Shown one piece after another: positions 1,287 through 43,484 of a stretch of DNA of 64,000 bases; position 1 is the stretch's first letter; the number at the start of each line of letters is the position of its first letter. This stretch comes from Verrucomicrobiota bacterium (GTDB lineage: Bacteria > Verrucomicrobiota > Verrucomicrobiia > Limisphaerales > Palsa-1400). The translations under genes were made by a program, and so were the position numbers. Below the pieces are notes generated by a model, which was not told where the DNA came from, searched no databases, and saw only the letters and a program-made list of their open reading frames with translations. Location of the stretch: positions 1 through 64,000 of the forward strand of contig JBEKYR010000022.1 of the NCBI GenBank assembly GCA_049510745.1, in the 5' to 3' direction.

Positions 1287-1456
1287 TGCGGCCAAATCCT
1301 CTTTTTTTGTAAGAATTTTCCTTCCATAGGTTTTTCCCGTTGACAGACCTGTGCTTAAATCGAGCCAGCATGAATTATACATGCAACAGGCAAAGTGCCG
1401 AGTGCGGCCCGGTCAACACCGGCCCGTGGATGGCAGACCTTTCCCATCGCATCAGC

Positions 1457-1492
1457 CATTCGTCGCATTGGTCCCATTGGTCCCATTGGCTC
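1457..1492. repeat. 9-bp tandem repeat (CATTGGTCC-like) x4
   Basis: cattcgtcg cattggtcc cattggtcc cattggctc. Confidence 0.75.
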
Positions 1493-1687
1493 CCCAATCA
1501 AGCCGGTCAAACCTTGGACGTTCGCCCTCACGTGCAACATTTGCCGTCATTGGCAGGTGACAGACTTGACGCAAAAACTCAATCCTGGACCGGTTCAAGT
1601 GCAGACCCGATCCGCCGCCAGCACCCGAAACGACCCCAAGAAGCGGCAAAAAATGCCGGATCCAACCCGGAAAACGAATTCAAGAAC

Positions 1688-1747
1688 CCGGACAAATCCG
1701 GAAAAATCCGGCCAAATCCGGGTAAATCCGGCCAAATCGGGCCAAAA
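1688..1747. repeat. 10-bp tandem repeat CCGGnnAAAT x6
   Basis: ccggacaaat ccggaaaaat ccggccaaat ccgggtaaat ccggccaaat cgggccaaaa. Confidence 0.9.
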
Positions 1748-1834
1748 ATTGAAATTCCACAAAATTCCCGGAATCGGCGAAAGCGACCGGTGACGAAAAA
1801 CCTCATGAATGCTACCACCGTCAGAGGGGTCGAG

Positions 1835-34140: not shown

Positions 34141-36294
34141 GTGAAAGCAAGCTATTTTGATCCGGCAAAAAGCCCCTTTTCCCTGTGGATTGTCCTGCTG
34201 CCCACCCTGGTGTTTTCCGTCGCGGCCAGGAGGGCGGCGGCGCAAACGGCGGAACTTCCCACCCTCACTTCGGTGCGCCAGGTTCGGGAAGTGACGCCCG
34301 AACAGGCCGCCAAACGATACCCGGTGCGTCTGCGGGGGGTCGTGACTTTTTGCGAGGCATCGTATGACATGGGAATGTTTATTCACGACGCCACCGGGGG
34401 GATTTACGTCAAGCTGAACGAGGGGACAATCAACCTCAACGCGGGCGACGACGTGGAGATCGAGGGCCGCAGCGGGCCGGGAGATTTTGTGCCGGTGGTG
34501 CGGCTTGAGCGGGTGAAAGTTCTGGGCCGGGCGGCGCTGCCCGACCCTGACCGCGTCACTTATGAGCAGTTGGCCACCGGCAGCGAGGACGGCCAATGGG
34601 TCGAACTGCGTGGAGTGGTGCGCTCGATTGTTCCTTCGGTGCGGGGGCACATGCTGGTTGATCTGCTGACCGATGGCCAGCGGCTGAGCGCGCTGGTCAC
34701 GCGATTCGATCCGGCCGACGCGGAGAAGCTCATTGCCGCGACCGTGCGGGTGCGCGGCGTCTGCCGCACCAGTTTCAATAACCGCCGCCAAATGCGCGCC
34801 CCGTTCCTAAGCGTGACCAGTTCCGATGACCTGACGATGGAAACGCCGGCGGCGGGCGGGACGGTGGAAGTGCCGCTGGCCCGGCTCTTCCAATTCAACT
34901 CGCAAGGTTACTATGGCCGGCGGGTCAGAGTGCAAGGCGTGGTGACGGCGCAGAAAGGGACCTCGCTGTTCATCCAGGACCAAGGCGAGGGCCTGTCGAT
35001 CAAAACCCCCCAGACCAACCTGTTCTTTCCCGGCGATCTGGTGGTCGTGGCCGGGTTTCCCACCGTCGGCCAGTATTTGCCCGTGCTGGAGGACGCCATG
35101 GTGCAGCGCCTGGGCCATCGCTCTCCGCCGCCGCCCATCAACGCGAGGATTAATCAGTTGATGTCCGAGGATTATGACGGCGCGCTGGTCCGGTTGCGGG
35201 GCCGGCTGATGAACCGGGCATTGCGCGGTGACGAGCAGGTGCTGGTGCTGGAGGCGGAGAACCTGATTCTGAGCGCCCGGGTGGACACCGCCAACACCGA
35301 CCGCCGCTTCAACGCCTTGCAGATTGGCAGTGAATTGGAGTTGACAGGCGTTTGCCTGCCGCAGCCCATGGAAAACTGGAATCCCTCCATTGAAACCCAC
35401 CCCGAATCGTTCCAATTGTTGCTGCGCTCCTCCAACGACGTGGTGGTCCTCCGCAATCCGCCGTGGTGGACGCTCTCCCGGCTGCTCTGGACGCTGGGCG
35501 TGATGACGGTGATTCTGCTGGCGGGCTTCGCCTGGGTTTTTGTGCTGAACCGGCGGGTGCGCCACCAGACGGCCATCATTCAACAGAAACTCCAGCGGGA
35601 GGCGGTGCTGGAAGAGCGCACGCGCATCGCGCGCGAATTTCACGACACGCTCGAGCAGGAACTGGTGGCCATCACCATCCAACTGGAAACGGTCGCCGAC
35701 CAATTCAACACCGCCCCGCGCATCGCGCGCCAGATGCTCGAACTGGCGCGGCAAATGAGCCGGCGCAGCCTCTTTGAAGCGCGCCGCTCGGTCTGGGATT
35801 TGCGCTCGCACCTGCTGGAAAACAGCAACCTGGACTCCGCCTTGCGCGAAGTCACCAAACTGATGTCGGCCAGTTCGTGCGTGCCCATTGCGGCGGAGAC
35901 CAGCGGCGTGCCGCGCAAATTGCCGCCGCAAGTGGAGAACAACCTGCTGCGCATCGCCCAGGAAGCGCTGGCCAACGCGCTCAAGCACGCCCGCGCCAGC
36001 CAGATCACCGTCCACCTGGCTTATGACCCCGGCAAAGTCTCTTTGCGGGTGGAGGATGACGGGGTGGGGTTCGACACCAACAACAGCGCGGTCGTTTATG
36101 GCGGCCATTTCGGATTGCTGGACATGAGCGAACGGGCGGAAAAGATGGGCGGCTCTTTCACGATGATCAGCGCGCCCGGCCAGGGCGCCAAAATCATCGT
36201 CGAGTTCGCGGAAAGAGGCGCGGCTGTGGCCGCCGCCGCCGGGCCGGAGCGCCAGTTGCATTTGCCCGCCGCCGGACGATCTGAATTTTTATGA
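34141..36294 (+). CDS. Membrane sensor histidine kinase (HisKA_3) with repeated extracytoplasmic modules
   Basis: EERTRIAREFHDTLEQ, QEALANALKH, DDGVGF, GHFGL; repeats VRLRGVVT/VELRGVV/VRVQGVVT/VRLRGRL. Start uncertain. Confidence 0.9.
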   Translation: MKASYFDPAKSPFSLWIVLLPTLVFSVAARRAAAQTAELPTLTSVRQVREVTPEQAAKRYPVRLRGVVTFCEASYDMGMFIHDATGGIYVKLNEGTINLNAGDDVEIEGRSGPGDFVPVVRLERVKVLGRAALPDPDRVTYEQLATGSEDGQWVELRGVVRSIVPSVRGHMLVDLLTDGQRLSALVTRFDPADAEKLIAATVRVRGVCRTSFNNRRQMRAPFLSVTSSDDLTMETPAAGGTVEVPLARLFQFNSQGYYGRRVRVQGVVTAQKGTSLFIQDQGEGLSIKTPQTNLFFPGDLVVVAGFPTVGQYLPVLEDAMVQRLGHRSPPPPINARINQLMSEDYDGALVRLRGRLMNRALRGDEQVLVLEAENLILSARVDTANTDRRFNALQIGSELELTGVCLPQPMENWNPSIETHPESFQLLLRSSNDVVVLRNPPWWTLSRLLWTLGVMTVILLAGFAWVFVLNRRVRHQTAIIQQKLQREAVLEERTRIAREFHDTLEQELVAITIQLETVADQFNTAPRIARQMLELARQMSRRSLFEARRSVWDLRSHLLENSNLDSALREVTKLMSASSCVPIAAETSGVPRKLPPQVENNLLRIAQEALANALKHARASQITVHLAYDPGKVSLRVEDDGVGFDTNNSAVVYGGHFGLLDMSERAEKMGGSFTMISAPGQGAKIIVEFAERGAAVAAAAGPERQLHLPAAGRSEFL

Positions 36295-36929
36295 CAGCGG
36301 ACGCCAAAAAGAAAATCAGCGTCATGGTGGTCGATGACCATTTCGTGGTGCGCATGGGTTTGAGCGGCTCGATCAACGTCGAAGCCGACATGGCTGTCAC
36401 GACCGAAGCCTCCACGGGCGAGCAAGCCGTGGCCGCCTACCGCCAGCACCGGCCGGACATCGTTTTGATGGATTTGAAACTGCCGGGCATAAGCGGGGTG
36501 GAGGCGACCAAGGCCATCTGCACCGAGTTCCCCGGCGCGGCCGTCATCATGCTTTCGACCCACGACGGCGAGGAGGACATTTATCGCTCGCTCCAGGCCG
36601 GGGCGCGCACCTACCTCCTCAAGACCGCCGCGCGCAACGAGTTGATCGACACTATCCGCGCCGTCCATGCGGGCCAGCGGGCCATCTCGCCGGCGGTCGG
36701 AGCGCGCCTGGCCGAACGGATGATGCACCCGGACCTGACGGCGCGGGAGATCGACGTGTTGCGCTTGATCGTCAAGGGCCGGAGCAACAAGGAAATCGCC
36801 GCCGACTTGTTCATTGCCGAGGTCACCGTCAAGCTGCACGTGGGCCATATTCTGACCAAACTGAGCGTCAACGACCGCACCCAGGCCGCCACCACCGCCC
36901 TGCAACGCGGCCTCATTCATCTCGAGTAA
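36291..36929 (+). CDS. NarL/LuxR family response regulator
   Basis: VVDDH, DIVLMD, LTAREIDVL...SNKEIA...DRTQA. Confidence 0.95.
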   Translation: MTADAKKKISVMVVDDHFVVRMGLSGSINVEADMAVTTEASTGEQAVAAYRQHRPDIVLMDLKLPGISGVEATKAICTEFPGAAVIMLSTHDGEEDIYRSLQAGARTYLLKTAARNELIDTIRAVHAGQRAISPAVGARLAERMMHPDLTAREIDVLRLIVKGRSNKEIAADLFIAEVTVKLHVGHILTKLSVNDRTQAATTALQRGLIHLE

Positions 36930-36939
36930 CCCCCCCATT

Positions 36940-39141
36940 GTGAATAACCAATCCATCTTGTTCGCCGCTTTCATGTCGATAACAACTGCCCCTTTGCTCC
37001 CGGCCGCGGAACAGCCGCTTTACCTGGACGCCCGCCAGCCCCGCCAAGCGCGGGTGGAGGATTTGCTCCAGCGCCTGACCCTGGAAGAGAAGGTGTCGCT
37101 CGTGCATGGAGACTCGTATTTCGGCACGGCCCCCATCCCGCGCCTGGGCATCGCCCGCCGCTGGCTTTCCGACGGCCCTCACGGAGTGCGGGAAGACATC
37201 GGGCCGGATACTTGGAGAACGGCCGGGCACACCGATGACTTTTCCACTTGCATGCCCGCCGGCATTGCGCTGGCCGCAACCTGGAATCCCGGCCTGGCGC
37301 GCGCGGAGGGCGAAGCCATCGGCCAGGAAGCGCGCCAGCGCGGCAAACAGATCATGCTCGGACCCGGCCTCAACATCGAGCGGACGCCGTTGTGCGGACG
37401 CAGCTTCGAATACATGGGCGAGGACCCGTTTCTGACCGCGCGCATGGCGGTGGATTACATTCGCGGCGTCCAATCCCAGGGCGTGGCCTCCTGCGCCAAG
37501 CATTTTGCCGGCAACAACCAGGAATGGGACCGCTTTACCATCAACGTCGAGGTCGATGAGCGCGCCTTGCGGGAGATTTATCTTCCGGCCTTCCGGGCGG
37601 CGGTGCAGGAGGCCGGCGTCTGGGCCGTCATGGGCGCCTACAACAAACTCCGCGGCCAGTTCTGTTGCCAAAACGATTTTCTCCTCAACAAAATCCTCAA
37701 AGGCGAGTGGGGCTTCCAAGGACTGGTCGTCTCCGATTGGGCCGCCACCCACGACACCCGGGAAGCGGTCTTGAACGGTTTGGACCTCGAAATGGGAACC
37801 CAAACCAATTTCGACCGGTTTTTCCTGGCAACCCCTTATCTGGATGGCTTGCGCAAGGGCCAGTTCCCGATGTCGGGCCTGGACGACAAAGTGCGGCGCA
37901 ATCTCAGGGTCATGATGGCCGCCCACATGTTTGATCCCGGCCCGCCAGGCTCCCTGAACACCCCCGAACACCAAGCCGTGGCCCGCCGCGTCGCCGAGGA
38001 AGCCATCGTCCTGCTGAAAAACGACGGCGGCGCGCTCCCTCTGGATGTGTCCGCCATCAAGTCCCTGGCCGTCATCGGCGAGAACGCGGTCGCGTTGCAG
38101 GCGCATGGCGGCGAGAGTTCGGCGATCAAGCCGCTTTATGAAATTACGCCCTTGCAGGGCATCCTTCAGCGCGCGGGCAGCCGCGTCAACATCACTTACG
38201 CGCGGGGTTACGGCGAGAACGCCGACGCCGGCCTGGTCGAGCAAGCGGTGCGGGCCGCCCGGCAAGCGGACGCGGTCATCGTGGTGGCCGGGTTGGGGCA
38301 TGGGCCTTTTTGCGACACCGAAGGGACGGACCGCAAAGACCTCAAGCTGCCTTTCGGGCAGGACGACCTGATCGACAAAGTCCGCCAAGCCAATCCCAGG
38401 ACCATCGTGCTCGTGGTGGCCGGTTCGCCGGTGGAAATGGACCCCTGGCTGGCGGGCGTGCCGGCGGTTTTGCAGTGCTGGTATTCGGGCATGGAAGGCG
38501 GCAACGCCATCGCGCGGGTGCTCTTCGGCGACGTGACCCCTTCGGGCAAACTGCCCTGCACCTTTCCCAGGCATCTGGCCGACTCGCCCGCCCATGCGCT
38601 GCACGCCTATCCCGGCCAGGACGGCACCGTGCGCTATGAAGAGGGGTTGCTCGTTGGATACCGCTACTTCGACACGAAAAACGTCGAACCCCTCTTTCCG
38701 TTCGGTCACGGCTTGTCTTACACCCGGTTTGAGTATTCCAAGTTCGAGCTGGCCAGGAACACCTCGGCGGGAGACCCCGTCGTGAGCGTGAAATTCGAGA
38801 TGGCCAACGTCGGGGACCGCAACGGCGGCGAGGTGGCGCAAGTCTATGTGCATCAACTCCATCCGGGACTGCCCCGCCCCCTCAAGGAACTCAAAGGCTT
38901 CAGCAAGGTCTTCCTGGCGCCAAACGAGAAGCAGGCCGTTTCCATTCCGTTGGACGAGAGCGCCTTTGCCTATTACGACCCGGACAAGGGCGGCTGGCTG
39001 GCGGAGAAGGGCGACTTCGAAATCCTGGTCGGCAGCTCCTCGCGGGACATCCGATGGAAAGGCACATTCACCCTGGACCAGACGACGTTGCGGCCGCCGG
39101 CGCTTTCCGCGCAATTGAAAACGCAGACCGCGCCACAGTAG
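36940..39141 (+). CDS. Secreted GH3 beta-glucosidase/beta-xylosidase with Fn3-like domain
   Basis: SDGPHGVR, GRSFEYMGEDP, AKHFAGN, VVSDW, EGTDR, PFGHGLSYT, LKGF.K. Confidence 0.94.
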   Translation: MNNQSILFAAFMSITTAPLLPAAEQPLYLDARQPRQARVEDLLQRLTLEEKVSLVHGDSYFGTAPIPRLGIARRWLSDGPHGVREDIGPDTWRTAGHTDDFSTCMPAGIALAATWNPGLARAEGEAIGQEARQRGKQIMLGPGLNIERTPLCGRSFEYMGEDPFLTARMAVDYIRGVQSQGVASCAKHFAGNNQEWDRFTINVEVDERALREIYLPAFRAAVQEAGVWAVMGAYNKLRGQFCCQNDFLLNKILKGEWGFQGLVVSDWAATHDTREAVLNGLDLEMGTQTNFDRFFLATPYLDGLRKGQFPMSGLDDKVRRNLRVMMAAHMFDPGPPGSLNTPEHQAVARRVAEEAIVLLKNDGGALPLDVSAIKSLAVIGENAVALQAHGGESSAIKPLYEITPLQGILQRAGSRVNITYARGYGENADAGLVEQAVRAARQADAVIVVAGLGHGPFCDTEGTDRKDLKLPFGQDDLIDKVRQANPRTIVLVVAGSPVEMDPWLAGVPAVLQCWYSGMEGGNAIARVLFGDVTPSGKLPCTFPRHLADSPAHALHAYPGQDGTVRYEEGLLVGYRYFDTKNVEPLFPFGHGLSYTRFEYSKFELARNTSAGDPVVSVKFEMANVGDRNGGEVAQVYVHQLHPGLPRPLKELKGFSKVFLAPNEKQAVSIPLDESAFAYYDPDKGGWLAEKGDFEILVGSSSRDIRWKGTFTLDQTTLRPPALSAQLKTQTAPQ

Positions 39142-39213
39142 TGGCGGAACTTGGGCAGGTTGAATGGCGCAACCAACCTTTGCGGCCATAGGAGTTTGCA
39201 GACACGCTCTTAA

Positions 39214-40395
39214 CTATTTGGTTATTGTTCTATCTCTATTAAGTTCAGCGCCGATCAACGCTGTCACAGCATCATCAATTGCTTTTTTGTACTTGTCGCC
39301 AGGCCCAACTTTTTCAGGTGCAATCCCATTGATACGAGTGAAAACGTCTTGCCAGCCAGAAGAACCATCCACTCCAACGGACCCTACATCGCAACTTATT
39401 GTCAAGACATCTTCCATATTCCTAAAATTGCTGTGAAAAATGACACTAAACTTCCAATTAACATTTGTGCGGAGATTAAGTTCTTCAACGGCGATGTTTG
39501 TCTCTGTTTCCCAGTCAATCACAAGCGGCAGTCCGTGATAATTCTCTTCCAGTGAATCCATTTTTAATTTTGCGACATTGTCCATTGCTGTGTTCAAAGC
39601 GGTGATAGCATATTGAAAAGCAGCGACATGTTCTTGATGGTTGAAGTGAAATGTTCTTATTTGTTTGTCATGGTCGAGCTGGATCGTTGCACGCTTATCT
39701 CGATATTTTCCAATCATGCCTTCTTCCCAAGTTTTCAAATTCGTGCTTTCGGATTTTATGTCTTGCAAGCGTCTATCAACATCAATAACGTTGTTCCGTA
39801 AATCTGGCGAAGCCAACGGATTGTTTGCGATTGCGTCTCGAATCCCTTGCTCTGTCGCGGAAAGATTACTAATAAGCATATCCTGAACGTCTATTCTTTC
39901 CATGAGCTTTTTTTCTCCCGCGCTTATAGGCGGCGGGGAATGTTGTTTGCGATATTGACCGGCAATGCCGTGCCGACTAAGCATAGAAATGCTTCCCCAT
40001 ATAGCTATAATGGCAAATATACGGATGCCGATATTTACCCGTTTTATACGCAGCCAAATCCAAATAGCATGAGATGCAAAACAAAGAGCCGCACCCCAAC
40101 AAATACATGCGCCTACAATGCTTGATTCCAGTCCACTCATTGCATATCCTTGGGCAACAAGGGCCGAAATAACTGCAAAAAGCAAATCTCTCGTATATGG
40201 CCCCAAGCCAGTCCCAGGGGTGGTTCGTTCACCTTGCGGCTCCGGTGAATTATTTGGCGCTGGCGCGGTGGGGGCTGGCGTTGTTGGTGGCGCTGGCGGT
40301 GCGGTGCTTGATGGCCCGGAAGTTGCCTGAGCATCAGGCGCGCTTGGTCTGCCCAAGAGCTTGTCTTCTTCACCCATAAAGCCCAAGATTGACAT
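39214..40395 (-). CDS. Hypothetical membrane protein, low GC (Pro-rich N-terminus, three TM helices, coiled-coil-like region)
   Basis: 393-aa ORF in visibly AT-richer DNA; start may be 40377. Confidence 0.7.
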   Translation of the reverse strand: MSILGFMGEEDKLLGRPSAPDAQATSGPSSTAPPAPPTTPAPTAPAPNNSPEPQGERTTPGTGLGPYTRDLLFAVISALVAQGYAMSGLESSIVGACICWGAALCFASHAIWIWLRIKRVNIGIRIFAIIAIWGSISMLSRHGIAGQYRKQHSPPPISAGEKKLMERIDVQDMLISNLSATEQGIRDAIANNPLASPDLRNNVIDVDRRLQDIKSESTNLKTWEEGMIGKYRDKRATIQLDHDKQIRTFHFNHQEHVAAFQYAITALNTAMDNVAKLKMDSLEENYHGLPLVIDWETETNIAVEELNLRTNVNWKFSVIFHSNFRNMEDVLTISCDVGSVGVDGSSGWQDVFTRINGIAPEKVGPGDKYKKAIDDAVTALIGAELNRDRTITK

Positions 40396-40460
40396 GTGAA
40401 GTTCACGGCGTAAAGCTGAAAATTACTTATGTGGAGGGGATAATTCCGAAACTTTTTATT

Positions 40461-40500
40461 TTAGCTCCGTTTTACTCCGTTTTAGTCCGTCTTACTCCGT
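40461..40500. repeat. 10-bp tandem repeat TTTACTCCGT-like x4 overlapping the stop of the gp27-like gene
   Basis: ttagctccgt tttactccgt tttagtccgt cttactccgt. Confidence 0.8.
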
Positions 40501-41190
40501 TTTGGCTGGGTCAAAGCCGGCTTCTTTTGCGGCTTGGAGGAGGAGTTTGCGGTGTTGCAGGTTCATGGTTTCGGCGTTGGGGCCCGACCAGGTTTGGCTG
40601 ACCGGGTCGAAGGTGTTGGCTTCCGCCGAGCCGGCGACGCCAAGGAGATCGTTGATGGATTCGTCTTGTTCGTCGTCGGTGAGGGGCCGGTCAAGGCAGG
40701 GCTGGCCGGCTGCGGCTGGGTGATGGAGGCGATGATGGAGGGCGACGGTGGCGAACTGGTAGCGGCGAAGGGAGGCGAAGCTGAGGCGGAATTGGCGCCA
40801 AAGGTTGGCAAGCTGATCGGGGTCTGCGATGGCGTTCTGGGTTCGCTTCATTTGCGCGAGCATCTGTGAGGCAAAGAGAGTAGCCATGCGGTCAATCAAG
40901 CCGCCTTGCAGTTCCGTGAGTCTATCGGCGGGAAGTTGGTTGATGCGGTGGAACATATCCTGAGCCATGCGTTCGGCTTTCCATTCCTGGTGGCCGCCTG
41001 CGCGCCATTCGTTGAGGTTGTCTTCGGTAACGGGGCGGCCTTCAAAGTCCTGGTCGAGGATGGCTTTGACTGAGGGATCGGAGTTGAGCCAGTCGGCAAT
41101 GGGTCTTGAGGGTTCGCCTTGTTGGAGGCGGGTGTTGACTTGTTCGCGGATGGCCAGCGGGAGCCGGGCGATTTTACCTATGCGTGACAT
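40492..41190 (-). CDS. Phage Mu gp27/DUF3486-like protein (putative small terminase or DNA-binding protein)
   Basis: MSRIGKIARLPLAIREQVNTRL...IADWLN...NLNEW resembles the gp27 N-terminus; family call is inference. Confidence 0.6.
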   Translation of the reverse strand: MSRIGKIARLPLAIREQVNTRLQQGEPSRPIADWLNSDPSVKAILDQDFEGRPVTEDNLNEWRAGGHQEWKAERMAQDMFHRINQLPADRLTELQGGLIDRMATLFASQMLAQMKRTQNAIADPDQLANLWRQFRLSFASLRRYQFATVALHHRLHHPAAAGQPCLDRPLTDDEQDESINDLLGVAGSAEANTFDPVSQTWSGPNAETMNLQHRKLLLQAAKEAGFDPAKTE

Positions 41191-41211
41191 AAGTTTCTTT
41201 GCAGGCAGATG

Positions 41212-42780
41212 TTACAAAAAATCGGAGTTTGGTTTTTGGGGGACGTAGTGGCGGTCGCGCATTCTCTCTTCTTCGAAGTGAGCGGCTGTGGGGATTATGC
41301 CGAGCGGGTACGGCCAGCCGTCGCCGTAAAGGGCGTGGTGGGGGTTGATATTGATGCCCGCCACGGAGACGGTGGCGCAAAGGTTCGTGGCCGCGCGCCA
41401 GGCGAGGGCGAGGGCGGTGCAGCGGTCGGCGTGGCCGTCGTCAGTGTGGGCGGCCCGATAGGAGACGTAACCGGAATTGGAGCAGACAAGGACAACGCTG
41501 TGGAGGTCTTCGCGGATGGCGCGGGAGACGGGGATACGGAGTTTATGTTTGGCGAAGGCGTCGCGCAGGTTGGCGAAGAGGGCGCATTTAACGGGGGCGG
41601 TGAAGGAGAGGAGTTCAATTTTGCCGAATTTATGTTGAGGAGGATTCCATTGGCCGAAAAGCTTGACGAGGTAATCGCCCAGACCGATGCCAGGTCCGGT
41701 GTAATCAAAGCAAACGCGGTGGACGCGCCTGATTCTGCGGGAGAGAATATCGACCTGGTCTTGGGTGGGAGTTTTGGAGAGTTCAAGAACTTCGACGGTG
41801 TGCTCGACGTCGCCCACAGTGGCGGTGGTCCAGGCGACGGTGAGGTTGCGTTTTCTGCCGAAATCGATGCCCATCTTGAGATTTGCGTTTACAGATGTTT
41901 CCCAGAAATCGGGCGGACAGAAAGCGGTGGCATCGAGGCTTTCACATTGGGCGATGAGGTCGTAAGGGAGGAGGATGCTTTGGGCGTCGAGGAATAGGCA
42001 TTCGAACTCCTGATCCCAGCCATCCGGGTCGTCGAGGGCGGATTTGAGGTCTGGAATGTGGATATCGAGGCCGTTGCGGACGGCTTCGCGGATGGGGACG
42101 AAATGGCAGGACCAGATGGGGGAAATAGTTGAAGTTTGAATTAGTGATTTGTTGAGTGGGGCAGTCAGTTTTCCCCCGGCATTCACTGATTCACTAATTC
42201 TCACTTCACTAATTCGTTTGTAGTTCTTGATCCAGAGGTCGTGGGCTTTGTTGCCGATGCCGTTGGGGGTGGTGATGAGGCGGACTTTTTTGACGCCGCC
42301 GCGCAGGGGATTTGTGATGGCGGGGAGAATGGCGCGCCAGGTGGCGTCGGGGTTTTCGAAAAAGGCGAACTCAGAAAGAAGCACGTTGGCGCTGTAGCCG
42401 CGGACGGTGTCGGGCTTGCCGGGGACGGCGATCACGCGCGAACCCTTGGGAAAAGTGATAGTGGCCGAGTGGAGAAGGGCTTCCGGGCCGCCGTCGCGGT
42501 TCTCGTGATAGTTGTGGATGGCGGCATTGAAGGTATTGGCCCAGGACTTCCATTTTTCAAGGCTTTCAAGGGATTGTCGTTCGGAAGGAGCGGCAATGAG
42601 CCAGGTGGTGGGTTTGCGGGAGGCTTCGGCTTGGATGCAATCAAGGATGCCTTCGTAGGCTGCGGAGAAGTCTTTGCCGACCTGGCGAGCCATGAGGCCG
42701 AATTTCCAGCGAGAGGAGTCGTCCACCCATTTTTGCTGGTAGGGGAGGAGTTTTTTGCGGAGATTTGCGGTGATGGTCAT
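41212..42780 (-). CDS. Terminase large subunit, Mu gp28-like
   Basis: LLPYQQKW, ARQVGKDF (Walker A), VLLSEFAF (Walker B variant), ITTPNG, QEFEC.F, GIDFGR, DYTGPG, HADRCTAL. Confidence 0.9.
   Translation of the reverse strand: MTITANLRKKLLPYQQKWVDDSSRWKFGLMARQVGKDFSAAYEGILDCIQAEASRKPTTWLIAAPSERQSLESLEKWKSWANTFNAAIHNYHENRDGGPEALLHSATITFPKGSRVIAVPGKPDTVRGYSANVLLSEFAFFENPDATWRAILPAITNPLRGGVKKVRLITTPNGIGNKAHDLWIKNYKRISEVRISESVNAGGKLTAPLNKSLIQTSTISPIWSCHFVPIREAVRNGLDIHIPDLKSALDDPDGWDQEFECLFLDAQSILLPYDLIAQCESLDATAFCPPDFWETSVNANLKMGIDFGRKRNLTVAWTTATVGDVEHTVEVLELSKTPTQDQVDILSRRIRRVHRVCFDYTGPGIGLGDYLVKLFGQWNPPQHKFGKIELLSFTAPVKCALFANLRDAFAKHKLRIPVSRAIREDLHSVVLVCSNSGYVSYRAAHTDDGHADRCTALALAWRAATNLCATVSVAGININPHHALYGDGWPYPLGIIPTAAHFEEERMRDRHYVPQKPNSDFL
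42122..42215. repeat. Palindromic repeat element inserted in frame in the terminase gene
   Basis: gaaatagttgaagtttgaattagtga matches 57781-57806 at 23/26; the other end is made of ttcactga/ttcactaa units. Confidence 0.7.
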
Positions 42781-42852
42781 AGGGGGGGTTGTTGGAGGGG
42801 CCCCGGCCGGTTGCCGATTTCCTTCACCGCATATTGGCGCTTTAGCGTCATG

Positions 42853-42889
42853 GTGTTATCCGATAACACATATTACGGGGTGATGTCAA
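42853..42889 (-). promoter_or_regulatory. Putative promoter/operator of the terminase cassette
   Basis: Perfect palindrome GTGTTATC-C-GATAACAC (42853-42869); TTGACA at 42889-42884 on the minus strand; -10 unclear. Confidence 0.5.
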
Positions 42890-42920
42890 GCGATAATCTG
42901 TTACTAAATAACAATTTTCA

Positions 42921-43245
42921 AAATGGACCCCGAAAGGGCTGAAGAAAGGGACGGAAAGGACCAAAAGGACAGACACGGACGGACACGGACGGACACGGAC
43001 GAATGGACCGCGGAATGGACCGCGAATAGGCTGAAAAAGGGAACGGAAGGGATGGGGATTATGATTACGATGAGGAAAAGGACGGAAGGGACGGAAAGGG
43101 CCAATAGGACGGACACGGACGGACACGGACGGGCACGGACGGACACGGACGGGCACGGACAAATGGACCGCGAAAAGGCTGAAGAAGGGGACGGAAAGGA
43201 CGGGGATTACGATTACGATGAGGAAAAGGACGGAAGGGACGGAAA
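42921..43245. repeat. Mosaic purine-rich repeat array (blocks A-B-A-C-B-A-C)
   Basis: A=aatggaccgcgaa..ggctgaa.aa.gg.acggaa (42921, ~43013, 43161); B=(ggacacggac)n (~42967, ~43107); C=ggggatta.gattacgatgaggaaaaggacggaagggacggaaa (43054, 43202). Confidence 0.92.
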
Positions 43246-43313
43246 CAGGCGCTTTCGCACGTCGGCACGGCTAATGCTCTCTCAATGGCATGATATCAGT
43301 GAGGAGTCATCAA

Positions 43314-43484
43314 ATGGGGGCATCCGGGGTGATCCAGGCCGTGGGACTGGTGGCGCTGATTGGGTTCATCTACCGGCATTTCGGACCGCAGGCACAGGGG
43401 CCGGTGACGCCATCGGTCGTCGCCGTTATGGCCACCGGGGTGATTTTGTTGCTTTGGCCGATGAGCTTGAAGACAAGGCACTAA
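43314..43484 (+). CDS. Small two-TM membrane protein
   Basis: GAGGAG RBS at 43301-43306; 56 aa with two hydrophobic segments and a basic tail. Confidence 0.55.
   Translation: MGASGVIQAVGLVALIGFIYRHFGPQAQGPVTPSVVAVMATGVILLLWPMSLKTRH

Follow-up and report, generated by a model that had tools for sequence, protein, structure and literature searches.

The terminase cassette and its promoter region

The first 64,000 nucleotides of contig JBEKYR010000022.1 (hereafter the window) come from a Verrucomicrobiota bacterium of the order Limisphaerales (assembly GCA_049510745.1; this genome, 5.6 Mb and 94% complete, is denoted G000, and C-numbers refer to its contigs). Between a beta-glucosidase gene and ABC permease genes, the window contains a cassette of two genes that encode a large terminase (TerL) of the phage Mu gp28 type and a protein, the product of gene 2, that appears to be a small terminase (TerS) of the Mu gp27 type (Table 1). 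An earlier note on this sequence had described an uninterrupted 522-aa large terminase with ATPase and nuclease motifs, placed together with a gp27-like gene between ordinary host genes, and this description holds, with the addition of a 393-aa open reading frame (ORF) of low GC content that the note did not mention. TerL matches the Pfam family Terminase_6N (PF03237; E 3.6e-8, above the cut-off) and the PHROG terminase large subunit (phrog_2; E 4e-32), and K36, E137, D306, D359 and D452 are invariant in the TerL alignment; the family matches and the catalytic residues together place the protein among the Mu gp28-type large terminases. Most of the named homologs are annotated as 'phage FluMu gp28-like protein', and a few of these come from Verrucomicrobiae. 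We take the conserved stretches listed in Table 1 to be the Walker A motif (R32-QVGK36-D), the Walker B motif (NVLLS-E137) and the acidic residues of the nuclease. Residue 136, which precedes the catalytic E137 in Walker B and is usually Asp, is Thr or Ser across the entire TerL clade, including the pattern-matched viral members, and many relatives carry different in-frame repeat insertions in the loop between the ATPase domain and the linker that contains the hairpin 42130-42208.

Gene 2 starts 21 bp past the TerL stop codon. Taken alone, its product has zero Pfam matches and a weak match to the PHROG small terminase (phrog_426; E 0.02, residues 1-37). In its family, which comprises 3280 clusters at E <= 0.001, phrog_426 is matched by 73 of the 107 aligned members and Phage_Mu_Gp27 (PF11985, DUF3486) by 19 of the 107 (E <= 0.01), so that the profile searches that the earlier note had proposed point to membership in the Mu gp27/DUF3486 small-terminase family at the family level. 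An HHalign comparison with the TerS encoded on contig C10 gives an E of 2e-4 (probability 46), and one gene-2 paralog shares its last 17 residues with that TerS. The structure model (mean pLDDT, the predicted local distance difference test score, 87) has the usual TerS order of an N-terminal helical domain, a hairpin and a C-terminal helix, and the modeled N-terminal domain is likely to bind DNA. A Foldseek search of the model against BFVD yielded no significant match (the best being DUF3486, E 0.02), a PDB-wide fold search retrieved only generic helical hairpins (Z about 8), and the predicted complex of TerL residues 1-470 with gene-2 residues 75-232 scored 0.00.

The approximately 160 bp upstream of TerL are a copy of the divergent promoter of a repressor module located on contig C3 (module R, below), with both operators and the stubs of both flanking genes, and the cassette is therefore a mosaic of an early promoter, TerL and a TerS-like gene. 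The palindrome that the earlier note had seen here is a copy of the predicted operator of the module-R repressor. A sigma-70 scan produced one 9/12 site, not above chance. The tandem repeats that the note had reported on both sides are likewise present; they consist of intergenic repeat words found genome-wide, and short arrays similar to the downstream one follow most gene-2 paralogs. The proposal of a repeat-mobilizing element finds no support in these repeats. The cassette sits behind a conserved small gene, and homology to the corresponding empty site of a related genome, G001, stops at about 43262. In other peat metagenome runs, the stretch from gene 2 into TerL (40511-42278) and the stretch from the host flank into gene 2 (38800-41151) are each spanned by single contigs with 0 differences; because these independent contigs span it without a difference, the cassette is not an assembly artifact, and a chimera was rejected.

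Table 1. Features of the window cassette and modules of the split Mu-type system in G000
Feature	Position	Strand	Details
TerL, Mu gp28-type	41212-42780	-	522 aa, no internal stop
TerL motifs	R32-QVGK36-D; NVLLS-E137; T170-T-P; D306, D359, D452		from alignment
In-frame repeat-derived hairpin in TerL	42130-42208		about residues 190-220
Gene 2, gp27/small-terminase family	40492-41190	-	232 aa
Gene 2, N-terminal helical DNA-binding-type domain	residues 12-70		pLDDT 96-98 in structure model
Gene 2, helical hairpin	residues 88-156		structure model
Gene 2, gp27-type LTxxE..I..LLG helix	residues 170-184		matches end of genuine module TerS proteins
Gene 2, subfamily-specific tail	residues 185-228
Early promoter/operator copy	42781-42943	-	76% identical to module-R divergent region G000:C3:209041-209163
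Repressor 5' stub, start MDPERAE	42923	+	within copied promoter region
5' stub of gene opposite repressor	start 42851	-	within copied promoter region
Palindromic operator-like site TGTTAT-N3-ATAACA	42854-42868		same site flanks repressor gene in G000 and relatives
Second, imperfect operator-like site	42899-42913
Upstream tandem repeats	42944-43245		148-bp unit x1.9 containing 10-bp repeats
10-bp tandem repeat x4.4	40459-40507		overlaps gene 2 stop
Low-GC (about 46%) ORF	39214-40395	-	393 aa, two predicted hydrophobic segments, directly downstream of gene 2
Module A (lysis-TerS-TerL)	G000:C10:72735-77119 (L001)		two small lipoprotein-like genes, Lipase_3, two small genes, TerS, TerL
Module B (portal-to-tail)	G000:C23:47607-64072 (L012, L013)		Portal_Mu, Mu-like (Mu I) protease, capsid-like, Gp36, further genes without family matches
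Module R (repressor-Gam)	G000:C3:208678-210611 (L133)		HTH_3 repressor, small ORF, short AAA protein (AAA_22), Phage_Mu_Gam

A Mu-type virion system split over the genome

The statement of the earlier note that portal, capsid and tail genes are absent is correct for the cassette locus and does not extend to the genome: the search for unlinked virion genes that it had suggested led to a portal-capsid-tail module on C23, in addition to a TerS-TerL module on C10 and the repressor module on C3. Each of the three modules is on a contig of its own and is flanked by host genes on either side. The TerL gene of module A is directly followed by a host gene, and module B begins exactly at the Mu portal; its capsid-like protein was called by Atlas (0.97-0.98). 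In module R, a transposase between the repressor and Gam is absent in G000, and there is no room for MuA at this position in G000, G002, G006 and G012. A search of the 94% complete G000 with DDE_2 yielded no match, and its control also matched nowhere; a 242-aa Mu-transpos_C remnant on C15 is unlinked to the modules. A Mu-like gpT was not found in G000. The host flanks of the window and the scattering of the modules over contigs rule out a complete contiguous Mu-like prophage. The system resembles the late region of phage Mu (gp27-gp28-gp29) in its TerL, gp27-type TerS, Portal_Mu, Mu I protease and Gp36, and Mu in general in Gam and the repressor, and differs from Mu in that its modules are unlinked, no transposase separates the repressor from Gam, and there is no family match to a Mor/C-type activator. 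In the window cassette, there are two further differences, namely the early promoter and the order of TerL before TerS, the reversal of which the earlier note had read correctly.

Upstream of both modules A and B, there is a dyad motif that is alike within a genome and different between genomes, as seen in 7 of the 8 genomes in which both upstream regions could be read (the exception is G001). In its position, this dyad resembles the C-binding dyad of the Mu late promoters (PMC2582627). G000 contains 26 copies of the motif at up to 2 mismatches and 25 at 1 mismatch, compared to 0 for the reversed control; they precede module A, module B, the TerL on contig C8, two gene-2 copies and 16 mini-elements, which lack genes, measure 369-450 bp, are 83-93% alike (median 88%) and end in the gene-2 3' tail. 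Other genomes have their own variants of the motif, with 81 copies in G006 (L278-L288) and 25 in G012 (L290-L300), which represent two other genera, and two copies, those of A and B, in G002. Of the 11 G006 copies that were read, one is in front of the portal, one is in front of a TerS-like gene, located behind the ABC permease just where the window has its cassette, and 9 have no match behind them; the 11 copies read in G012 include two before gene-2-family genes, one A, one B and 7 without a match. What follows the amplified copies in these two genomes is mostly mosaic repeats without a gene. One of the mini-elements, of 440 bp, is located in the window (1318-1760) and consists of the late-promoter motif, repeats, the gene-2 3' tail and a 10-bp tandem repeat. 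The flank skew of the mini-elements is too weak for judging a replication-strand bias.

In four genera of the family (g1, g3, g5 and g8), Verrucomicrobiota from peat and soil, each module occurs in one copy and is mostly not linked to the others. The named records that contain the close TerL clade likewise belong to Verrucomicrobiota, several of them to Limisphaerales. Among 24 relatives from the family, TerL is matched in 21 and the portal in 12, in 10 of which it is present in one copy at 68-82% identity; in 9 of these 10 genomes, the portal is the first gene of the module and is not preceded by a terminase. The exception is G001, where modules A and B are 2.2 kb apart and the genes are more diverged. 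Module A ends after TerL in six genomes (G002, G004, G012, G017, G024 and G020), and in G006 the contig ends at that point; all three modules are unlinked in G000 and in the long-contig genomes G012 and G017. Module B has the same host neighbors, presumably an rsfS/nadD-like block, in G006, G015 and G020. Nine of the portal-bearing genomes contain the module-R repressor (best copy 47-76%) together with the same operator type. Among viral contigs, the layout is different: in a set of 77 viral loci, for 55 of which a crude caller gave the next ORF and 39 of which were tested after removal of near-duplicates, the ORF following a TerL of the same type is the portal in 38 of the 39, and therefore the split layout is not the viral norm.

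The conservation of the capsid (median identity 90%; ratio of nonsynonymous to synonymous substitution rates, dN/dS, estimated by NG86 here and below, 0.06; dS 1.05; 55 pairs) is close to that of GyrB used as a reference (91%, 0.05 and 1.19, respectively; 45 pairs), and dN/dS is 0.13-0.20 for the portal, the protease and two further genes of module B. In a module-B tree built from 9 genomes, g3, g8 and the pair of G000 and G002 are recovered with support of 99-100, and capsids at >= 83% identity are restricted to g1, g3, g5 and g8 among 301 genomes drawn from the order. The split capsid gene in G017 is probably a read error because gyrB of this genome is also split. Published accounts of gene transfer agents (GTAs; PMC9662315, PMC11841831) characterize them as phage-derived head, tail and packaging genes that are fixed in the host, occupy multiple loci, are vertically inherited and lack replication and integration genes. 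The sequence data point to multi-locus endogenization here, and to vertical inheritance and co-diversification with the host, the latter in 9 genomes only and with G001 as an outlier. In these genomic respects, the split system, known here from genes alone, is similar to RcGTA, BaGTA, VSH-1, Dd1 and VTA as they are portrayed in those accounts; it differs from them in its descent from a Mu-like transposable ancestor, in its Verrucomicrobiota host and in its multiplied terminase genes and promoters. Furthermore, the TerS of described GTAs lacks a DNA-binding domain (PMC11841831), whereas the TerS modeled here appears to keep an N-terminal DNA-binding-type domain and thus departs from the GTA pattern.

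Defective phages of the PBSX type are kept by the host, controlled by a repressor, non-replicating and encoded in a single locus; they pack host DNA and kill neighbors without gene transfer. The split system is similar to them in being host-kept and repressor-controlled and unlike them in occupying several loci. Judged by its genes, the split system has the hallmarks of a Mu derivative that has been domesticated into a GTA-like (or PBSX-like) form, and module B quite probably makes DNA-filled particles.

Duplicated terminases and the selection acting on them

In G000, there are four complete copies of TerL (57-65% identity), among them those of the window, C10 and C8, and one fragment on C3, along with five full gene-2 paralogs and many 3' pieces. 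By its sequence, the cassette in the window arose as an extra copy of the terminase of the split system, and the genome contains three such extra terminases. In a tree of 133 TerL proteins (quick IQ-TREE and FastTree runs; eight distant-clade rows and two viral rows were left out), the window copy groups with P0030 and P0031 (support 1.0) as the sister of the C8 copy and P0040 (0.83), and the window clade is nested inside the module-A TerL clade of its genus (0.98). P0030 and P0031, compared here as protein sequences, are intact orthologs from two other organisms, 73-77% identical to the window TerL; for gene 2, there are intact homologs at 63-75% that include the subfamily tail. A metagenome scan found 5 loci, none of them for P0030 or P0031. 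Pairs of a gene-2-family gene and TerL without a portal are also found in L169, L058 and L059, with gene 2 at its canonical position ahead of TerL. In other genera, L082, L083 and L086 contain two or three TerS-like genes in tandem, with short repeats between them, and on C8, the region that separates TerL from the accompanying gene-2 copy (G000:C8:61993-69223, L002) contains a methyltransferase-like ORF of low coding score and transposase-like fragments, which we take to be Y1/REP-associated. All solo copies (window 40492-42780; C8, C70 and C29) have a sense-strand GC skew of -0.22 to -0.29, compared to a skew of about 0 for modules A and B; in the flanks, it is -0.01 to -0.05.

The selection acting on the window TerL bears directly on whether the cassette is a slowly decaying duplicate, one of the terminase and promoter pieces of the domesticated system that are copied through recombination of the abundant intergenic repeats, without a role and merely unbroken so far. 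The dN/dS of the window TerL is 0.24 against the C10 copy and 0.42 against the C8 copy, compared to 0.14-0.28 for pairs of module-A proteins, with the reservation that the strong C-rich skew shared by the solo copies deflates dS among them; a three-point estimate by branch gives 0.51 for the window copy and 0.23 for the module-A copy. Decay would account for this relaxation, as well as for the patchy presence of the cassette among relatives, the many broken solo copies, the 16 gene-less mini-elements, a deletion derivative on C23 and the lack of a terminase gene behind most of the amplified promoter copies (9 of the 11 read in G006 and 7 of the 11 in G012). It does not sit well with the two frames remaining open throughout a stem of 0.49 changes per site, with the changes in the window TerL avoiding invariant columns (9 of 161 are changed, with a baseline of 0.8% and a maximum of 2.4%, as opposed to 107 of the 132 variable columns), with intact orthologs in two other organisms that share derived residues, or with the intact gene-2 homologs that retain the tail. 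Altogether, the sequences indicate relaxed but clear purifying selection on the window TerL, and decay without a role appears unlikely. Relaxed selection, which the earlier note had named as evidence against a retained module, is thus present in part (branch dN/dS of about 0.5), with the purifying component still in place; of the two fates that the note had left open, remnant or retained module, the second is favored, in the sense that the cassette is not simply rotting. L137, an assembly 98.6% identical overall, has 0 differences in both cassette genes and, because of this identity, gives no signal of selection within the species.

The derived residues common to the window TerL, P0030 and P0031 (D312, R347, P348, E374, L397 and S403, as well as K404, M407, E410, R412, N430 and R431) cluster in the nuclease domain, in a pattern that looks like change followed by conservation. 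Such a pattern might be expected of a repurposed terminase, either a decoy or inhibitor that interferes with packaging by related Mu-like phages upon their entry or a kill switch that is under repressor control, cuts DNA and fires early upon induction. The early, repressor-type promoter would suit this role, free Mu-like prophages with a 54-63% identical TerL exist in the same family (L050, L167 and L168), and a satellite-encoded inhibitor of TerL provides a precedent (PMC11417361). Given that all catalytic residues and the two-subunit make-up are kept and that the sister solo copies are driven by the late promoter instead, we regard a decoy or kill switch as improbable on balance.

Mobility of the cassette itself was also considered. 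The segment C23:164-453 joins the upstream DNA of the cassette to the gene-2 3' end, with both ends at 92% identity, and is by its sequence a deletion derivative of the window cassette. Together with the 16 related mini-elements in G000 and the parallel amplifications in G006 and G012, it could suggest that the RNase H-fold nuclease of TerL acts as a transposase and is responsible for the dispersal of cassette, mini-elements and repeats alike. No long terminal inverted repeat was found around the cassette, inspection by eye revealed no fixed ends or target duplications, and the promoter and flanks differ for each solo copy. The four TerL copies are only 57-65% alike and therefore not recently copied, and a self-mobile terminase is very improbable. 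Since no fixed ends are seen, the cassette has probably spread to new sites via recombination between the genome-wide intergenic repeats.

A possible role in packaging

The cassette is derived by duplication from the module-A terminase, the portal-capsid-tail module is unlinked to it, an early promoter/operator has been copied upstream, the catalytic residues are intact, and selection is purifying. These findings are best accommodated if the intact TerL-TerS pair serves as an accessory packaging-initiation unit that acts in trans for the split Mu-type system, an interpretation that we hold with about even confidence. Under this scenario, lifting of the C3 repressor would lead to transcription of the cassette; the TerS-like protein, with its predicted DNA-binding domain, would pick start sites, which might coincide with its own locus or be close to it; and the cassette TerL would cut chromosomal DNA and feed it into proheads made from the C23 module. 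The outcome would be a wider or biased choice of the chromosome pieces that are packaged. A bias of packaging toward the cassette's own locus can be put forward only tentatively; it would explain the multiplied TerS-like genes, the extra terminases and the late-promoter mini-elements. By extension, it is possible, albeit doubtful, that a Mu-like phage has been domesticated in this lineage into a split GTA and that this GTA has been colonized by minimal packaging parasites, namely solo TerS-like genes, TerL-TerS cassettes and late-promoter mini-elements, which would plug into the GTA regulon and direct packaging toward the places where they reside, in a form of packaging drive. Among the roles listed in the earlier note, a GTA-like helper and a packaging hijacker fit best.

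Several observations weigh against an accessory packaging unit. The early promoter implies odd timing for a packaging gene, no family match to a Mor/C-type activator was found in G000, and all functions of the cassette (particles, transcripts, binding and activity) are deduced from sequence. The branch-specific dN/dS is relaxed, and about a dozen otherwise conserved residues of the nuclease domain are altered, which could mean lost contacts with the portal or DNA. G001 has nothing at the cassette site, and the arrangement there is different in G002; solo terminases are often found broken (the C3 fragment, L051, L053, L178 and L180), and a deletion derivative exists on C23. In G002, the capsid gene is frameshifted and TerS is missing, so that the domesticated system is decaying there, and complete Mu-like prophages of the sister type are also present in the family.

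Phage satellites offer another comparison. Between 39141 and 43513, the ORF list and the Pfam and PHROG searches revealed no integrase, replication module or att-type ORF, and a satellite of the type of phage-inducible chromosomal islands (PICI) or Staphylococcus aureus pathogenicity islands (SaPI) was accordingly rejected. The TerS of SaPI and PICI is presumably a parallel to the cassette as a stand-alone determinant of packaging specificity. PLE satellites (Gpi/GpsAB) resemble it in relying, with a stand-alone packaging-specificity gene, on the virion genes of another element (PMC11417361). Unlike SaPI, PICI and PLE, the cassette lacks an integrase, replication genes and att sites and brings its own TerL, and its helper would be a resident domesticated system rather than an infecting phage.

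In the main texts of the open-access literature, no description of the split Mu-derived system or of the cassette was found; the split system would be an undescribed GTA-like system and, with its vertical inheritance, arguably matters more than the cassette. GTA lineages resemble the debris of prophages, which makes new ones difficult to recognize; this candidate is marked by a capsid conservation equal to that of GyrB, by the split layout and by the co-evolving promoter motif. The host group is abundant in peat and soil, and the ancestor is of the Mu type, unlike those of the GTAs in the literature covered. The multiplied terminases and promoters (25-81 mapped motif copies) make the long-standing question of exploitation versus selflessness in GTAs testable, with exploitation meaning that elements bias the choice of packaged DNA.

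As for the surroundings of the cassette, Pfam, PHROG and Atlas searches with the 393-aa ORF downstream of gene 2 gave no family or fold lead. A 64-aa hydrophobic ORF (43290-43484, plus strand) is convergent on the ABC permease gene, and its DNA is conserved in G001 (75%) and G006. Farther away, the sensor kinase region at 35028-36360 of the window is about 15% different in the otherwise near-identical assembly L137, suggesting a recent recombination tract.

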